Shown: positions 56,132 to 64,000 of the stretch, piece after piece | Layout of the letters: every line of letters starts with the position of its first letter | Numbering within the stretch: position 1 is the first letter of the stretch | Assembly (NCBI GenBank): GCA_963706575.1 | Contig: CAVPNL010000008.1 | Span: 295,987-359,986, forward strand | Direction of reading: 5' to 3' | From: an uncultured delta proteobacterium | GTDB taxonomy: Bacteria; Desulfobacterota; Desulfobacteria; Desulfobacterales; JAHEIW01 | DNA length: 64,000 nucleotides | The notes under the pieces: model-generated | What the model was told of the DNA's origin: nothing | Seen by the model: the letters and a program-made list of their open reading frames with translations, nothing else | Database searches by the model: none | Made by a program: the position numbers and the translations under genes

Positions 56132-57151
56132 ATGCCGGCAGAACATAATAACAAAACTGAAAACACCAACACGCTTTTTCCGTTTGCTGCTGTTGTCAAC
56201 CAGGAAAAAGCGAAAGAAGCTTTACTGCTGGCTGTCATCAATCCGGCTGTGCATGGGGTTCTATTTTTAGGCGAAAAGGGCACAGGCAAAACAACACTGG
56301 TTCGTAGTTTATCAACTCTATTGCCGGAAACTCAGGTCATTGATCTGCCTTTAGGCTCTGGCGAGGAGATGGTTCTCGGTACGGTGGATGCCGAAAAAGC
56401 GCTGGCCACCGGTAAGATATCTGTCAAGCCGGGCATTTTGGCAAGGGCCGACGGCCACGTGTTGTATATCGATGAAGTGAACCTGCTTGCGGATCATCTA
56501 ATGGATATTATCCTGGATGCCGCAGCAACCGGCCAATATCGGCTGGAGCGCGAGGGAATCTCTTCCAGTAATGCCGCCCGATTTATTCTCGTAGGATCAA
56601 TGAATCCCGAAGAGGGCTGGCTACGCCCGCAGCTTTTGGATCGTTTCGGTCTCGCTGTTCACATAAGCGCCATATCATCGGTGAAGAAGCGGGCCGAAGT
56701 TTTCAATCGCGCCCAGGCCTTTGTGACGGATTCCCGAGCTTTTGTACAATCCTACCAACAAGATCAACTAGAAATTACAGAAAAGCTGCGGCAATCCAGA
56801 AAAAGACTAACGAAAGTCACCATTCCGGATCAACTTACCAACAAAACGATCGAAACGATTTTGCAGTTAGGCGTCAAGACGCACCGGGCGGAGTTGGCCA
56901 TATTACAAGGGGCCAAAGCCCGGGCCGCCTGGTATGAACGTGACTCCGTATCCTGGGAGGACATTCAAACGGTAATGCCGCTGGCGCTCCAGCACCGAAT
57001 AACAACAGTGGACATCCAGAGTCCGGTTACCTGGGACTTGCTCAACGAACGTCTGTTGGAAATAAACAGCAAGGCCAAGAATGAAGACAAAAAAGGCTGG
57101 TTACCCTCCCCATTTTACCGAAAAAAAAAAGCCGAAACGCGGCGCAATTGA
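56132..57151 (+). CDS. Mg/Co-chelatase ChlI/BchI-like AAA+ domain (5' part of a frameshifted chlD-type gene)
   Basis: FPFAAVV.QE, GEKGTGKT, LYIDEVNLL, GSMNPEEG.LRPQLLDRFGL. Confidence 0.9.
   Translation: MPAEHNNKTENTNTLFPFAAVVNQEKAKEALLLAVINPAVHGVLFLGEKGTGKTTLVRSLSTLLPETQVIDLPLGSGEEMVLGTVDAEKALATGKISVKPGILARADGHVLYIDEVNLLADHLMDIILDAAATGQYRLEREGISSSNAARFILVGSMNPEEGWLRPQLLDRFGLAVHISAISSVKKRAEVFNRAQAFVTDSRAFVQSYQQDQLEITEKLRQSRKRLTKVTIPDQLTNKTIETILQLGVKTHRAELAILQGAKARAAWYERDSVSWEDIQTVMPLALQHRITTVDIQSPVTWDLLNERLLEINSKAKNEDKKGWLPSPFYRKKKAETRRN
57121..57143 (+). other. Candidate -1 programmed frameshift site: A10 run followed by a GCCG-AAACG-CGGC hairpin
   Basis: 0-frame CGA AAA AAA AAA GCC stops at 57151; the -1 frame is open from the A run into the VWA ORF. 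Confidence 0.7.
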
Positions 57152-57936
57152 CGCAATCAAAAAGCGCTCAAGGTTCTATCCCAATGACAGATGGTCGGAC
57201 CGCGGATTCGGCTTTTAAAAAAAGCTCGCCTGAGTATCATATTCCAATTCACCCATCCAGAACGGACGCATTCAAATCCCACGGCCGGGCGCGTGCCCGT
57301 AAAACGGCAGTTGCTGCTTTTGGCAAAAAGCAGTCCAATCAGCTCTGGCATACCGGCCCGGTTGACAGTCTGGCCACGATTTTCCACGCCTGGCGATGGG
57401 GTCGTGAGCGGCCCGTTGTTGCAGACCTTATGATGCCCGTGTATACATCGCCTCAGCAGCGTCTCGTGATTTTTTTACTGGATGTGAGTGATTCCATGTC
57501 GGAAACCGTGGATTTAATGCGTCTGTGGATGGCAAAATCCATGGGCGAGGCTTATTTTCGCAGGGATCCGATTGCCATCATAACGGTTCAGGGAGCAGGG
57601 GCCAAATTGCTTGTTCATCCGACCACCAGCATTCATTTTGTTTTGCATCGGCTCACGTCCGTTATTGTGGGAGGGGCCACACCACTGGATCAAGGCCTGC
57701 TAATGGTTGGCCGAATGATTAGACAATGGCACAATCGTTATCGCGTAGTCGATCTTATTGTAATCAGCGATGGTCGCTCGACAGGCGCCCTGGCAGATCC
57801 GAACATATCAGCATCGTTAGCCCTTATCAGAAAATTTGTTCGCGAAGCCCTGGTCATTAACCCCATCCCAATAGCAGATCGATTTGCCAGAGCCTTCGCT
57901 TCACTTATCGGTGCCCAACACTTTACCACTGAATAA
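57148..57936 (+). CDS. ChlD-like VWA domain (3' part, in the -1 frame)
   Basis: FLLDVSDSM MIDAS motif, AYFRRD, GGATPL..GL, VISDGR. Confidence 0.85.
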   Translation: MTQSKSAQGSIPMTDGRTADSAFKKSSPEYHIPIHPSRTDAFKSHGRARARKTAVAAFGKKQSNQLWHTGPVDSLATIFHAWRWGRERPVVADLMMPVYTSPQQRLVIFLLDVSDSMSETVDLMRLWMAKSMGEAYFRRDPIAIITVQGAGAKLLVHPTTSIHFVLHRLTSVIVGGATPLDQGLLMVGRMIRQWHNRYRVVDLIVISDGRSTGALADPNISASLALIRKFVREALVINPIPIADRFARAFASLIGAQHFTTE

Positions 57937-58147
57937 ACCGGAATCCTAAACGAATCCGGCAAACATGGTTATTTTTTGTTCCAATTAAATCGGCAATCCT
58001 CTAAAGCCTTCCATTTCATATCCCTAAAAATACGATAGTTGTATTTGTTTCAATATATCGGTACTCAGTTAATATTTAGTTTTCTGCTGTGCAAGCACGA
58101 TAACGAATATTGGGTGTTATCAATTAACCCTAAAGCGATACTATGTA

Positions 58148-58774
58148 ATGGATTACTTATCTACTATCGGTAGCATTGCTTTTATTTGGTTTCTGGTTGT
58201 AACCATACCCGGTCCAAATTTTGTTGTTGTCACGCAGGTCTCAATGTCAGAGTCGAGAAAAATGGGTTTTTTCATCGCTTTGGGTGTATCGATTGGTGCT
58301 GGCGTCTGGGCGTCTGCAAGTTTATTGGGTATAAGCGTGCTATTCAAATACGCAAGTTGGCTTTACGATGCAATTAAGGTTATTGGTGGTTGTTATTTGA
58401 TTTACATGGGCATAAAGACAATTTGGCATGCCATAAGACAGGAGGTTTTATCAGCTGACCTCGAAAAATCTATGAGTAACAATGTAGCAACTTTTCAAAA
58501 AGGGTTGTTTACAAGTTTTTCTAATCCTAAAACAGCTGCTTTTTTCGGAAGCCTGTTTCTATCAACTTTCCCAGCACAAGCAGCGTTTTGGTTCTATGTT
58601 GTAACTGTTTTAATCGTAATTGCAATTTCCATTCTCTGGTACTGTTTCGTCGCTTACTTTGTTTCTTTAAATAGGATTCAAATTATTTACAAAAGCGCAA
58701 AGCGAATATTAGATGTTGTAGCAGGATCATTGCTATTCTATTTAGGAGGCAAGCTGATATTAGGAAGAACTTAA
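58148..58774 (+). CDS. LysE/RhtB family translocator
   Basis: PGPNF, GGCYLIYMG, NPKTAAFF; AT-rich coding sequence. Confidence 0.9.
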   Translation: MDYLSTIGSIAFIWFLVVTIPGPNFVVVTQVSMSESRKMGFFIALGVSIGAGVWASASLLGISVLFKYASWLYDAIKVIGGCYLIYMGIKTIWHAIRQEVLSADLEKSMSNNVATFQKGLFTSFSNPKTAAFFGSLFLSTFPAQAAFWFYVVTVLIVIAISILWYCFVAYFVSLNRIQIIYKSAKRILDVVAGSLLFYLGGKLILGRT

Positions 58775-58995
58775 AGGCTTGAAGTCTGTGTTTGGATACT
58801 CACGAACTCCCTTATGTGTTGCAAGGAATTCATATATTTCCAGCTTGTCAAAGGTTTTTAAGGTCATATACAAATTGTGATATTCGAGAAAGTAGAAATG
58901 ATATCACAGAGTGCTCGTTTTGGTGATATTCTCAAATCTGCAATTTGCGATATTAAAAATTTTAGACTTCACCCGATGCATTTTAATCGAATAAA

Positions 58996-59440
58996 ATGAT
59001 GGAAAATAAAACAATATATAGAGTACTTATATTCGACGATTCAGAAGAAATTCGATCTTTATTATACGGCTTTTTCAATAAAAGAGGATATGAGGTTTTT
59101 TCTTTCCCTAATCCGGCCGTCTGTCCAATATCTCACGAAAAAATATGTCCCTGTCCAGCTGAAGTAGCTTGTTCAGATTTTATTTTATCAGACTTAGACA
59201 TGCCAGTTCAACAAGGTATAGATTTCTTAGAAGGGCAAATGCGTAAAGGTTGCAAGTGCAAAAATATGGCATTGATGTCTGGAGATTTTACCGAAAACGC
59301 TGTTGTACGAGCCAAATCTATTGGATTAATGCTTTTTAGAAAGCCTTTTGGTATCATAGAAATTTTAGAATGGATAGCAAGCAAAAGAAAAAACTATTGA
59401 CCCTGATAGAAAATTATCAGATTGGTTTCTTGAAAAATGA
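58996..59440 (+). pseudogene. Atypical receiver-domain protein with a Cys-rich insert; probable frameshift near 59380
   Basis: LIFDD, SDLDMP, MSG, KPF; an alternative frame continues KEKTIDPDRKLSDWFLEK* to 59440. Confidence 0.6.
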
Positions 59441-59617
59441 GTATGATATCACAAGCGAAGATGTTTCTTTGATCAATAAATCAGTAGTTCTCTGATGGTT
59501 GATCTTCTTACAAGGACTTACAGCTGTTTTTCTTTAATTTCAAAAGAAAATATTCTATGATTCTTTAAACTTTATATTCCTGCGAATTATGAATTAAGTA
59601 GGTTGGGATTGCTCAAA

Positions 59618-59836
59618 ATGAAAGAAAAAAAAATTTTAAAAGAGGCAAGAATAAGTGACCCTTATGTTGACCGTCGCTCTGGTGAAGATAGACGGCAGGT
59701 TTATAACGCAGATTATTTTCAAAATGGGGGATTGGAAAGAAGAAGTGGTAAAGAGCGAAGGCGAGACTACGAAAGACGGAAGGATTGTACAAGAGTAAGC
59801 GACTGGTCAAGTATCTGTTCGGTTGATAAGGACTAA
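59618..59836 (+). CDS. Small protein with (D/E)RRSGxxRR repeats
   Basis: DRRSGEDRR, ERRSGKERR, ERR; ends RVSDWSSIC. Confidence 0.7.
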   Translation: MKEKKILKEARISDPYVDRRSGEDRRQVYNADYFQNGGLERRSGKERRRDYERRKDCTRVSDWSSICSVDKD

Positions 59837-60241
59837 TTTCTGAATTATCCAATAATCGCTAAACATAATTCTTAAGAATCAGTTCCTTTAAGGCCGAGAT
59901 ACTTCTAAAGACTGTCGACAACCCTACCTTGATTTCAATTTCCACTTAATTCAATATATTACATGATTGTTTGCTATAGAAAAAAACAATTCTAAAAAGC
60001 TTTATAACTATCTTTATTAAGAATAGTTATTATTGTAATTAAGATTTAACTCTGCTATCTTTCGTCTGATTTTATCACTATTCAATTGGCCTTCCTTTTT
60101 TGGATCCTCAAATAGATGGTATAAATCGTTTCTGAACTATTCGCTAACACTTAATTTGTAATATCTAAGCAATTGCTTGCAAACTAAGTTGGTAATTCGC
60201 GAAAATTCTTATCGTCCCTCCTAGAAAGTACCATTTAAAAA

Positions 60242-60556
60242 ATGAATAAATGCCCAAGATGTAACCTACCGCAAAATGGACTTTATAAATGTCAATATTG
60301 TGGTTTTGACCTAAAAAAATATAACAAAAAGCCCACCACAATAATCCGAAAAAGGTTGAAAGATATCATTAGCGGATTTAAAAAAGGCCAGATAGTTTCA
60401 AGCAATAAAAAAAGCAATGTCCGCTCTATGAATTATGCTGGGAAGGCGAAAAAAAGTACAGATCATTTTGGAAGCCGCTCGGGAACTGATAGGCGACAAA
60501 AGAAAAATACAACCTATTTTCCCGAAAGAAGATCAGGCATGGACCGGAGAAAATGA
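60242..60556 (+). CDS. Small zinc-ribbon protein with RSGxDRR repeats
   Basis: CPRC..CQYCG N-terminus; RSGTDRR and ERRSGMDRR. Confidence 0.6.
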   Translation: MNKCPRCNLPQNGLYKCQYCGFDLKKYNKKPTTIIRKRLKDIISGFKKGQIVSSNKKSNVRSMNYAGKAKKSTDHFGSRSGTDRRQKKNTTYFPERRSGMDRRK

Positions 60557-60782
60557 TTTGATCTTAGAAGCTCAATTGCAAGAAAAAGAGGGTTCTAGAG
60601 CAGAGTTAGTCTAAATCCTCGAGAATCATACACCATAAAGCACAGGGACACATTCAGAAAACAATCTTAAAATAAATGCCAATTATTTAGGAAGTGCAAT
60701 TAAAATCTTTGATTACTTGTATGTTTCCTCGAACTTTCCTAAAAATCTAAGCAACGTGTAAGAGTCTGTTTGATAATCAACC

Positions 60783-60916
60783 GTGGTGTAGCAGACCGAT
60801 AGGTATCAGGTCTTTTAAGACCGAGTTGGAGCGCGGGTCGCTACACTACCTCCCATCTAACCCGAACGGTTGCAGGGGCATTGTAGCCCGCATGTTGCAA
60901 GACCGGGTACTGGAGG
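60783..60916 (+). ncRNA. Predicted IS110 bridge RNA (target-binding and donor-binding loops)
   Basis: Two stem/internal-loop/hairpin modules; loop AGTTGGAG complements right flank CTCCAACT; loop ACGGTTGC equals the element's right end. Confidence 0.8.
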
Positions 60917-60921
60917 ATGTC

Positions 60922-61488
60922 ATGGAAACAAAGCTATTTGTTGGAGTTGATGTCAGCAAAGACAGTTTAGACGTTGCTATTGGCCCGCAAAAAGACATCA
61001 TCACAAACGCAATAAAAAGGACATCGAGGATCATATCCGATGGCTTAAAAAACGCCTTGATAAAATCGAAACCGATATTGGTAAAATGATCCAAAGCAGC
61101 CCGATTTGGCGCTGTAAGGACGATATTTTGCAAAGCGTACCGGGCATTGGGCCCGTTACATCGGCCAGCTTAATCTGCGATCTTCCGGAGTTAGGTGTTT
61201 TGAGTCCGAAAAAGATTGCCATGTTGGCCGGTCTTGCGCCGTTAAATTGCGATAGCGGAAAATACAAGGGACGCCGCAGAATATGGGGAGGCCGTGCTTG
61301 TGTTCGCTCTGGTTTGTACATGGCAACGATGGCAGCGATCCGATGTAATCCGGCCATTAAGGGGTTCTATCAACGGCTGATTGCTGCCGGTAAATGTCAT
61401 AAGGTTGCGGCCACCGCCTGCATGCGGAAATTGTTGATAATCGTCAAATGCGATGCTTCGCGACCAAACGCTCTGGCAGCAAAATTAA
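60922..61488 (+). pseudogene. IS110 transposase pseudogene (most of the DEDD domain deleted, frameshifts)
   Basis: After ~28 codons it jumps to coiled-coil DIEDHIRWLKKRLDKIE in another frame; extra A near 61447 before NAMLRDQTLWQQN*. Confidence 0.85.
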
Positions 61489-61686
61489 TACTTGACTCCA
61501 AACACGGTTGCTCCAACTATATCAAAGGTTTTTGGGGACATAAAAATGTTGTGATATTCTAGGATATCTGTAATTTTGGCAAAATACAGATTATCTCACC
61601 TGTAACATTGTTTCTACTGTTTTTAGAATAGGGAATTATATTTACCATAGGCTATAAGTCTATTTCTATTTATGTAAGGAGTAGTC

Positions 61687-62520
61687 ATGAAGTTGTCAGT
61701 CATTACAGGGGCTTCAAGTGGAATCGGCGCTGCAACAGCGCGTCGAATGGCGGCCGATGGGTACAAGGTAGTACTTGTAGCACGCGGACGATCCAAAATT
61801 GACGAAGTTGCAGCGGAGATAGGCAAAAACGCTGTGGCCGAACCCTGTGATGCCAGCGACGGAGACGCTGTGCTATCGCTTGCCGAGCGTGTGCGCGACG
61901 AATTCGGAGTACCGGACGTAATAGTCAACTCCGCAGGGGCCGGTCAGTGGAAGCTGATAGAGGAGACCACGCCGGCTGAGGGGGTGACGATGATGGAGGC
62001 ACCATATTTTGCTGCCTTCAACATCACCCATGGTTTCATGCGTGACATGCTTGAACGAAATCGTGGCGTTATCATCCATGTCAGTTCACCTGTGTCGATC
62101 TTCACGTGGCCATCTTGCACTGGATACGCGGCGGCACGTTGGGCTCTGACGAGGGTTGCATGAGTCGTTGTGCGACGACCTTTATGATACAGGGGTGCGA
62201 AGCTGTCATGTAGTGTTCGGCAAGGCGTCAGAAGCTCTTACTTTGACAACAACCCAGGCGTAGAGGACAAATTGCCAGGCATCGCCAAAACGGTGCGAAC
62301 CATATCACCCGAGGAGTGTGCCAACGTTATCGCGAACGCAGCAATAAGACCGCGACGTCAGGTGGTGTATCCGATCATGCTACGGATTTACGTTTGGAGC
62401 TACGCTTTGTTCCCGTGGTTAACACGATGGCTGTTACGGACCACTGGGGCCAAGCGTCAAATTCAAACGCCATCGTCTTACGACCTTAGGAGCTGTAAAA
62501 CAAGGCCATACAATGGATGA
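61687..62520 (+). pseudogene. SDR family oxidoreductase with two frameshifts (~62149, ~62228)
   Basis: ITGASSGIG, VNSAG, YAAAR; continues RGLHESLCDDLYDTGV and SYFDNNPG in shifted frames. Confidence 0.8.
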
Positions 62521-62712
62521 TTGACGGTCTTAATAGGCTGTACTAACTCCAACTTATCAAAAGCTTTTAAGGTTATTAAGAGGTTCTGATTTTTTGGCAT
62601 ATCACAAATTTCCCGGGTTAGTGATATTCTCAATCAGTAATTCTCTTCTAATATCTAATACTCAGGAATTATTTCCACTCATTTAATAGTTTAGAGCAAA
62701 GGAAAACAGGTC

Positions 62713-63651
62713 GTGAAAGTACCAATAAACAACACTGTGATAGAAGTTAGACTAAAATGCAAACCCACTAATAGACATGTTGTTTTTTTGACCAGTTGTT
62801 TGGTGATTCTGTTTCTGATCTTTGGAGTGATACGAGCGGAAGCAAAATGGCCGCGAGTCGTCCCTTCCAAAGATGGCATCCCTATTTCTTTTGAGGTCTA
62901 CGGTGCCGGAGAACCGACTTTAGTATTCGTGCATGGTTGGAGCTGCGATGCTCGTTACTGGCGTGCTCAAGTGCCACATTTCTCAAAAAGTCATCGCGTT
63001 GTTACACTTGACCTTGCAGGTCACGGTCATTCGGGTACGAAACGTTTGCAGTATTCCATGTTGGCTTTTGGAGAGGATGTGCGAGTGGTGACAGAATCAA
63101 CTGGTAGTCGTCGAGTCATTCTGATAGGGCATTCCATGGGCGGCTCGGTGATTGCAGAGGCTGCCCGACTCATGCCGAGCCGTGTCATAGGGCTAATTGG
63201 TATAGATACACTTGAAAACATAGAATACCCGATGACTCGTGAAGAGTTCAAAAAAATGATCGCTCCTTTGGAAAAAGATTTTCGAACCGGAAGTCGGCAA
63301 TTCGTTGAGGAAATGATTTCACCCCAAACCGATCCGCAGATTCGCGAGTGGATTCTCTCAGATATGTCAGCTGCGCCACCTGCTGTCGCCTTAAGTGCAA
63401 TGAACAACATGATGTCACAGTACATTACTGGGGAAGCGGCCAAAATATTTGATGAAATTCGCATTCCAGTCATAACCGTGAACGGAGATATGTGGCCCAT
63501 TAACTATGAAGCCAATCGCCGACATATGTCTTTTTTTGAGGCCATTATCCTAAAAGGAGCGGATCATTTCCTTATGCTTGATCGTCCAAAAGAATTCAAT
63601 CAAGCTTTAGAGAAAGCAATACTTACGATATTAAAATATAAGACTAAATAG
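62713..63651 (+). CDS. Secreted alpha/beta hydrolase
   Basis: FVHGWSCD, DLAGHG.S, GHSMGG, HFLML. Confidence 0.9.
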   Translation: MKVPINNTVIEVRLKCKPTNRHVVFLTSCLVILFLIFGVIRAEAKWPRVVPSKDGIPISFEVYGAGEPTLVFVHGWSCDARYWRAQVPHFSKSHRVVTLDLAGHGHSGTKRLQYSMLAFGEDVRVVTESTGSRRVILIGHSMGGSVIAEAARLMPSRVIGLIGIDTLENIEYPMTREEFKKMIAPLEKDFRTGSRQFVEEMISPQTDPQIREWILSDMSAAPPAVALSAMNNMMSQYITGEAAKIFDEIRIPVITVNGDMWPINYEANRRHMSFFEAIILKGADHFLMLDRPKEFNQALEKAILTILKYKTK

Positions 63652-64000
63652 CATCTCCATGCAGCACTTTTGAAAGTTGGGCATAAGTGGTGTATGGTCT
63701 CAAACAAGTGTATACGCCAAATTCCAAAACAATAATGGCTTTCGTTCTAAGTGATGCCTACCGTTATGATTTCAAATATCCAACAAAGTACAAATATCAG
63801 GCTGCTAAATTTTTTGTGATATTCGATTTTAATCACAACTCAGAAGGATGAATCCGGGCTTATGGATTTGCCCTTTTTATTGCCCTAAAGTCGCATTTTT
63901 CGGGCTTATGGTTTGACACCAGATCAAAAAATACGATACGGTTCAGATATCCATTTGGTACCTGAAAAATTGCGATATTTGGGTTTCTCTCAATATATCT

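Follow-up and report, generated by a model that had tools for sequence, protein, structure and literature searches.

A repeated composite site that probably joins gene cassettes in an uncultured Desulfobacterales genome, and the small tyrosine recombinase that it encloses

The window analysed here is the last 64 kb of contig C8 (CAVPNL010000008.1) of an uncultured delta proteobacterium, whose genome (G000) comprises 5.67 Mb in 25 contigs; the right edge of the window is the contig end, and the DNA past 64 kb is therefore unreadable. Near this edge, accessory genes alternate with copies of a palindromic repeat. From sequence comparison we consider it rather likely that the repeat is a gene-cassette joint, and that a small tyrosine recombinase, nested in the joint, adds and removes genes by like-with-like exchange at two 7-mers. 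In what follows, a composite site runs from a left 7-mer (typically CTCCAAC) through a left arm, a central palindrome and a right arm to a right 7-mer (typically TCTCAAT), and the outer arms lie beyond the two 7-mers. The features are these:

56132-57936: left border of the array, with a chelatase-like AAA and a vWA gene that are both conserved in the genus
58016..58063, + strand: right half-site at the array start, just after the AAA/vWA genes, with right arm, TTTCAAT (58048-58054) and outer arm ATATCGGTAC
58148..58774, + strand: cargo, LysE-type translocator of 208 aa (PF01810, E 1.7e-36)
58838..58936, + strand: composite site A, with TTCCAGC (58838-44), left arm, TGTGATAT-17 nt-ATATCACA, right arm and TCTCAAA (58930-36)
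58996..59400, + strand: cargo, stand-alone receiver domain (PF00072)
59444..59490, + strand: right half-site B, with a shortened 7-mer (GATCAAT, 59471-77)
59603-59836 and 60242-60556, + strand: two small open reading frames (ORFs; 77 and 104 aa) without a Pfam match, likely cargo
60716..61510, + strand: internally deleted IS110-family element (PF02371), inside the left 7-mer of site C
61511..61600, + strand: composite site C, with CTCCAAC (61511-17), arms, central palindrome and right 7-mer TCTCACC (61594-600)
61687..62520, + strand: cargo, short-chain dehydrogenase (SDR; PF00106), interrupted in the assembly
62547..62634, + strand: composite site D, from CTCCAAC (62547-53) to TCTCAAT (62628-34)
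62713..63651, + strand: cargo, alpha/beta hydrolase of 312 aa (PF12697)
63778..63994, + strand: long module of 217 bp, with ATCCAAC (63778-84), left arm, palindrome, hairpin (63846-63873), TTGACA (63913-18), second palindrome, right arm and TCTCAAT (63988-94)

The initial annotation of this DNA had seen a cassette-like array of functionally unrelated genes, and its description holds in detail. All genes of the array lie on the + strand, are unrelated by Pfam (LysE, receiver domain, SDR, alpha/beta hydrolase) and are of mixed composition (GC 0.34-0.56). Every motif string that it quoted is present at the position given: the stretches 58838-58885 and 62547-62594 are identical at 34/48 positions without gaps, the third copy starts at 61511, ATATCACA-N14-GTGATATTCTCAA occurs at 58901-58935 and 62599-62633, a degenerate copy follows the receiver gene (59446/59479), and TTGTGATATTCGA..ATCACAA follows the hydrolase gene (63814-63838). 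The palindromic element does recur, but the extent of about 50-100 bp assigned to it was too modest, the element being longer and more ordered, with two conserved 7-mers that flank a central palindrome. Two further sites lie in the window, namely the right half upstream of the LysE gene (58016-58063) and the 217-bp module ending at 63994.

The repeats are not a product of chance, and the array is real. A motif model (nhmmer, four iterations) was built from nine seed copies of G000, three of which are the window's and therefore match it by construction. It finds 67 copies in G000 at E<1e-3 and none in the reversed genome at E<=10. A neighbour lies within 6 kb of 57 of the 67 copies, while 1000 random placements give a mean of 8.5 and a maximum of 22; isolated copies of the joint also exist outside arrays. 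The named relatives that carry the same module are metagenome-assembled genomes (MAGs) of Desulfobacterales. Together, G000 and 56 loci from relatives provided 211 model matches with 111 left and 138 right 7-mers.

The order within a joint is outer arm, CTCCAAC, a left arm of ~30 bp, a central TGTGATAT-spacer-ATATC, a right arm of ~25 bp, TCTCAAT and outer arm, and GATAT/ATATC-like boxes flank both 7-mers. Boxes around a short centre are the layout of a tyrosine-recombinase core. The suggestion of the initial annotation that the repeats are recombination sites is supported in the form of a gene-cassette joint, whereas the likely crossover points are the outer CTCCAAC and TCTCAAT rather than the ATATCACA-N14-GTGATAT pair, which represents the inner boxes of the right arm. 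The left 7-mer is CTCCAAC in 66/111 and the right one TCTCAAT in 94/138 cases, counts that are partly circular because the sites had been chosen at >=5/7 matches. Most of that circularity is avoided if all YYYCAAY 7-mers are classed by their arms only: those between an outer arm and a left arm read CTCCAAC in 33/41 and TCTCAAT in 2/41 cases, those between a right arm and an outer arm TCTCAAT in 49/54 and CTCCAAC in 0/54, and the same classing yields none on reversed sequence. Five candidate sites have two outer arms and six have a right arm facing a left arm, mostly at threshold. The outer arms on the two sides are reverse complements of each other in 46% of cases, compared to 2% after shuffling.

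The arrangement of the sites relative to the genes is equally regular. Only 1 of 249 7-mer sites is internal to an ORF, adjacent sites share the strand in 106/108 pairs, the next gene is co-oriented in 100/109 cases after a right 7-mer and in 78/90 before a left 7-mer, and the next start codon lies at a median of 180 bp downstream of the site. A right 7-mer is succeeded by a left one across cargo 63 times, a left by a right one at under 130 bp 55 times, and a right by another right one across cargo 26 times. Such segregated, alternating centres would be compatible with exchange between identical centres. Some sites stand head-to-head about the central palindrome (C4:542190-542327 and C15:130515-130602 in G000, and L140:6624-7083), which suggests inversions at that palindrome.

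The initial annotation had named stable orthologous genes behind a promoter-proximal operator as the finding that would speak against its proposal; the relatives present the opposite picture. In genome G014 the homology continues past the AAA/vWA genes as far as window position 58011, and the same vWA gene is then followed by a site and a different, WD40-type gene, while G006 has no array. Also as anticipated, breakpoints fall in the motif, in that boundaries of near-identical modules coincide with the 7-mers of sites. An SDR module of ~98% identity starts at 61598, 89 bp upstream of the gene, in 7/8 metagenome runs (7 studies), and in three runs it is joined to a different right arm, equal to window 63962-63996 (join 63996 to 61598). 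For the hydrolase module, near-identical contigs match 62633-63780; this span starts at a right 7-mer, ends at a left one and takes in 80 and 130 bp of flanking non-coding DNA. In one contig the module is attached to another right arm. The loose ends of the alignments cluster at 61521, 61557-61564, 61598, 63815, 63962 and 63999, positions that correspond to the left 7-mer, central palindromes and right 7-mers. Likewise, G034 and G000 share a segment at 97.6% identity that breaks off at a left 7-mer, and the segment shared by locus L134 and G000 begins at a right 7-mer. The cargo types seen include PF00144 serine hydrolases, GNAT, thioesterase, signalling proteins and peptidases.

The window itself is a partly decayed array without an enzyme. 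The right 7-mer region of site A is 3 nt shorter than that of a paralogous site on contig C1 of G000, the end of the right 7-mer of site C is ~5 nt shorter and the outer arm of site D ~4 nt shorter than in related contigs, and at site B the related contigs have an intact TCTCAAT followed by different DNA, with a loose alignment end at 59473. The SDR gene has indels at 62148 and 62230 relative to the ~98%-identical contigs. The IS110 remnant is preceded by the outer arm TGATTA and followed by CTCCAAC; a copy in G004 has 365 bases more and an identical right junction. The receiver gene recurs in other neighbourhoods, as a paralogue on C1 and as homologues in G001 and G006, and both small ORFs contain RRSG..DRR-type stretches and have homologues that are common in the genus. 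Because the long module at 63778-63994 matches both flanks of the small recombinase gene described below, it corresponds to a recombinase unit without the gene. Related contigs also lack the interior of this module, with joints of 63837 to 63942/63947.

The initial annotation had raised the possibility of a linked recombinase, and this is borne out in part: a tyrosine recombinase is enclosed in full-length joints of other genomes, whereas none adjoins the array of the window. G000 holds 10 PF00589 matches and, at 92% completeness, no detectable serine resolvase. The protein in question, of ~277 aa, has a single copy in G000 (C18:107745-108578, locus L117), with further copies in G034 and at loci L160-L239. 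It belongs to the tyrosine recombinase superfamily (PF00589, 77 bits against a cut-off of 27), and the catalytic residues R-K-H-R-H-Y are kept across 120 homologues. At E<=1e-20 there are 5944 homologues, a number that includes more distant tyrosine recombinases; with this query, none was found among plasmids (E 1e-30) or IMG/VR contigs.

The surroundings of the gene were studied in the best 80 of 220 related stretches, which include kin and are not independent. The gene is located between two central palindromes and usually points against the array. On the other strand, its flanks are the two halves of the window's last module: one half contains the left 7-mer, arm, palindrome and hairpin, and the other one TTGACA, palindrome, right arm and TCTCAAT. 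Both ends of this unit are present, with different flanks in each genome. The flanks of 74 and 73 of the 80 loci gave 72 BLAST matches in G000, 36 of which fall no more than 150 bp from a site, a zone that makes up 0.5% of the genome; these 36 share one orientation. Immediately beside the gene, the 80 loci contain 11 left sites on its downstream side and 7 right sites on its upstream side, every one antiparallel to it and none in any other arrangement, and the more distant sites are antiparallel in 32 and parallel in 9 cases; as controls, 925 kb of two-integrase loci hold 8 matches and the reversed loci 11. Short recombinase ORFs beside sites (G007:C9 and others) were considered and rejected, the one examined being a remnant next to tRNA genes.

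Of the 64 copies with an assignable start (16 of the 80 had none and were left out), 44 carry a single additional base in an A6-A9 run near codon ~20 and 2 are shifted by +2; the remaining 18 are in frame, and the run is missing from 16 of them. We infer from this conserved one-base shift on the A-run that programmed slippage is involved. In a promoter scan 13 sites scored, compared to 15.4 expected, and the TTGACA at 63913 received no score, so that an outward promoter is putative.

The following mechanism would account for a non-integron cassette array with a dedicated recombinase, which is, as far as comparative data go, the probable nature of the locus. The ATATC/GATAT boxes would be the binding arms of the enzyme and each 7-mer a strand-exchange region that requires identity, so that CTCCAAC would pair with CTCCAAC and TCTCAAT with TCTCAAT. 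The mobile unit, a gene with its joint from one 7-mer to the next like 7-mer, would excise and insert, or alternatively a gene could be replaced via two crossovers. The enzyme could act in trans on arrays that have no copy of their own, while the frameshift would hold its level low, and the TTGACA beside the recombinase start may drive the first cassette. Cassettes may become locked in through small deletions at right 7-mers, of which four window sites give examples. The joints 63837 to 63942/63947 and the reassortment of arms make it conceivable that the central palindrome serves as a third exchange point, or as an insertion slot that holds the enzyme's own gene.

Several observations weigh against this scheme. 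Arms reassort also at the central palindrome, where the spacer is variable, and a model with two 7-mers does not fully explain the data. Shared segments end within 120 bp of a site in 18/61 cases and within 10 bp of a 7-mer centre in only 4/61 (an end of IS110 in one case). Several stop where a gene does, and the borders of an aldo-keto reductase module are attC-like sequences instead. Sites A-D of the window each lack 3-5 bases at the right 7-mer compared to their homologues, so that alignments can end there by themselves, an effect that spares only the joins to a different arm; the SDR join, seen across many samples, may be a single event. Of 121 order-level genomes, 10 have >=4 sites (at most 30 candidates were scored per genome), and the recombinase (E<=1e-40) occurs in 5 of these 10, while 19 of the other 111 carry it without many sites detected by a model that is biased to the genus. 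The sites used to build that model come from one genus, divergent sites escape it, and most of the genomes are fragmented MAGs. Within the genus, 9/22 genomes have the recombinase or a fragment of it, one fragment adjoining the array of G004. At least two further antiparallel sites within 7 kb are found in only 6/80 recombinase loci, and the copy in G000 (C18) has rearranged flanks and is parallel to its nearest sites. The aldo-keto reductase module lies within an array (C4:356264-358248, locus L006), is common to G000 and G012 and has GTTRRRY-like and RYYYAAC-like ends; classical attC-type cassettes may be nested there as cargo.

The unit from CTCCAAC to TCTCAAT could instead be an insertion sequence-like tyrosine-recombinase element, the ~100-bp joints being its non-autonomous miniature copies, which would insert by themselves through recombination of left with right, and the genes moving only as passengers of adjacent copies. 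We regard this as unlikely. The presence of both ends in the recombinase unit and its different flanks in each genome, the coexistence of autonomous, 217-bp and ~90-bp forms, the isolated copies outside arrays and the reverse-complementary outer arms (46% versus 2% shuffled), which a palindromic target would give, would all fit such an element. However, it predicts mixed or copied 7-mers and empty targets, while the 7-mers are segregated and the 5 + 6 candidates are mostly at threshold; moreover, the copies share one orientation among themselves and with the genes, and cargo boundaries track the 7-mers.

Less probable still is that the joints are real but another enzyme, the host XerC/XerD pair or some other, shuffles them, the small recombinase being one more module held in a joint. 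XerC and XerD homologues occur in nearly every genome of the genus, while the small recombinase is patchy, and the pdif modules employ the host Xer pair with spacer identity, as described in PMC13141974. The site is also parasitised by other elements (IS110 family, a group II intron, the two-integrase transposon and a short element with GACTGTCG ends), as the recombinase gene might do. On the other side, the 7-bp centres, the direct orientation and the GATAT/ATATC arms are unlike the 28-bp C/D sites with 6-bp spacers, a loose dif pattern has no match inside the window array, and in many genera the recombinase's own ends consist of the very boxes found in the sites, as would suit a cognate enzyme. 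It is very improbable that the palindromes are operators of one transcription factor for accessory genes, whose turnover would be unrelated to them: the sites are indeed intergenic and lie at the stated median of 180 bp upstream of the next start codon, but the genes are unrelated to one another, a given locus carries different ones in different relatives, the boundaries of shared DNA fall at 7-mers, and the motif forms the ends of the recombinase unit. That the cassette recombinase is a tandem two-integrase element (360 + 312 aa; C1, C12), both copies of which lie co-oriented inside arrays directly at a left 7-mer, is largely refuted and hardly credible, given that terminal inverted repeats of its own delimit it, that its 7-bp flank (CTCCAAC) is duplicated, that among the matches listed its relatives at 79-81% identity (L007, L009) have CTCCAAC flanks without the motif, and that 69 loci hold 8 site matches versus 11 in the reversed control.

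The two-integrase element, rejected as the cassette enzyme, targets the 7-mer and is a passenger. Its copies in G000 (C1:5-2145 and C12:208260-210395; L003, L002) and its relatives (L007-L075) end in terminal inverted repeats of ~14 bp and are flanked by direct 7-bp sequences that vary with the lineage; it is widespread in MAGs of Desulfobacterota and Nitrospirota, multicopy in several, and resembles Tn554, SE and RIT, to which it is closer than the array is, but with two genes only. In 3 of 111 left sites an IS110-family element lies within the CT of the left 7-mer (window 60716-61510, C4:360672 of G000, and L100), and its recurrence at this point in three arrays predicts a bridge-RNA target that matches the site; an Rfam scan gave one sub-threshold match, inside the IS110 remnant. 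Insertion sequences reportedly target the pdif sites of Acinetobacter as well (PMC10132070). At C4:301237 (L005), one end of a group II intron directly abuts the left arm of a site, where the left 7-mer would lie. The short GACTGTCG-ended element is inserted in 8 of 138 right 7-mers; its sites in G000 include C4:215102, C4:304859, C4:360568 and C12:204376, and a similar end is seen at window position ~59908. An unrelated dispersed repeat of ~200 bp (L004:17330-17540; C1 ~187330 of G000) has many copies in 5/5 relatives searched.

Compared to known systems, the arrays are not IntI/attC, not XerCD/pdif and not RIT or SE. The cores of attC sites read RYYYAAC ... GTTRRRY, 35-140 nt apart; in agreement with the initial annotation, no such pair occurs on either strand in window 58000-64000, and no conserved single-strand hairpin is shared by five sites examined on both strands (z -0.06 to -2.10). 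The likeness to integrons consists in co-oriented arrays of single unrelated genes split by a repeated site, at which these single-gene cassettes change order or content; in a tyrosine recombinase that usually points away from the array, with a possible outward promoter; in arrays without the enzyme; and in insertions of IS110-family elements and a group II intron at sites, to which the attC-targeting elements of integrons are a parallel. On the other hand, the small recombinase scores 37-49 bits on TIGR02249 (cut-off 265), lacks the IntI insertion (PF00589 positions 9-166 span 144 residues, versus 199 in the real IntI of the genus) and lies within the joint. Separately, the genus does possess a true IntI (454 bits); it was discarded as the enzyme of these arrays, the motif occurring in 0/5 IntI-like loci examined.

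Acinetobacter dif modules, in which exchange needs spacer identity and the host Xer pair, are similar in that cargo and joint modules alternate, exchange likely needs identical centres and mutated sites fuse modules (PMC13141974). They have sites of 28 bp with XerC arm, 6-bp spacer and XerD arm, many different centres and inverted neighbours, whereas the arrays described here are chromosomal, with direct repeats (106/108 on the same strand), GATAT/ATATC arms and two fixed centres of 7 bp. The small recombinase reaches 51-65 bits against XerC/XerD cut-offs of 330-335, and XerC/XerD homologues are present. The sites are also, as first noted, unlike dif: a loose dif pattern, which gives many chance matches and does not allow the dif of the chromosome to be located, has none in the window array. 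RIT, Tn554, SE and GInt elements resemble our unit in having recombinase genes between short imperfect repeats and target specificity (PMC10214605, PMC3414803). However, RIT elements contain three tandem tyrosine recombinases where the unit described here has one; SE, Tn554 and GInt, as described in PMC10214605, have at least two recombinases plus helper genes and copy the left 6-7 bp to the right end, whereas here CTCCAAC follows a right arm and precedes an outer arm in 0/54 cases; and in contrast to all of these, cargo is found mainly between units. The nearest solved sequence is of XerA type (PDB 4a8e; NF040815), likewise with only a core-binding and a catalytic domain and intact R-K-H-R-H-Y, but the small recombinase reaches 108-121 bits where the cut-off is 220, and it is patchy, often multicopy, frameshifted on the A-run and embedded in repeats. 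None of the subgroups in the section of PMC8138268 on simple recombinases could be matched to it by description, and the comparison also draws on PMC8618304. A term search of the main text of PMC3711429 gave neither "integrase" nor "recombinase", and a literature search, outside which most subscription papers and supplements lay, found no description of such a system.

It is tempting to regard these arrays as a third class of gene capture after integrons and dif modules, in which a frameshift-throttled recombinase would be nested in its own double-stranded joint, with two fixed 7-bp "barcodes" and with chromosomal arrays across Desulfobacterota that would hold dozens of accessory genes per genome; on the present comparisons, the case for and against so broad a claim is evenly balanced. 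The recombinase would represent an apparently undescribed, recoded family with thousands of homologues. If the proposal is true, a compact one-protein recombinase with two orthogonal 7-bp centres would be available for possible use as a tool, abundant sulfate reducers of sediments would possess a cassette system of their own that is invisible to attC-based tools, and there would be a concrete cause for much of the accessory genome of sulfate reducers.

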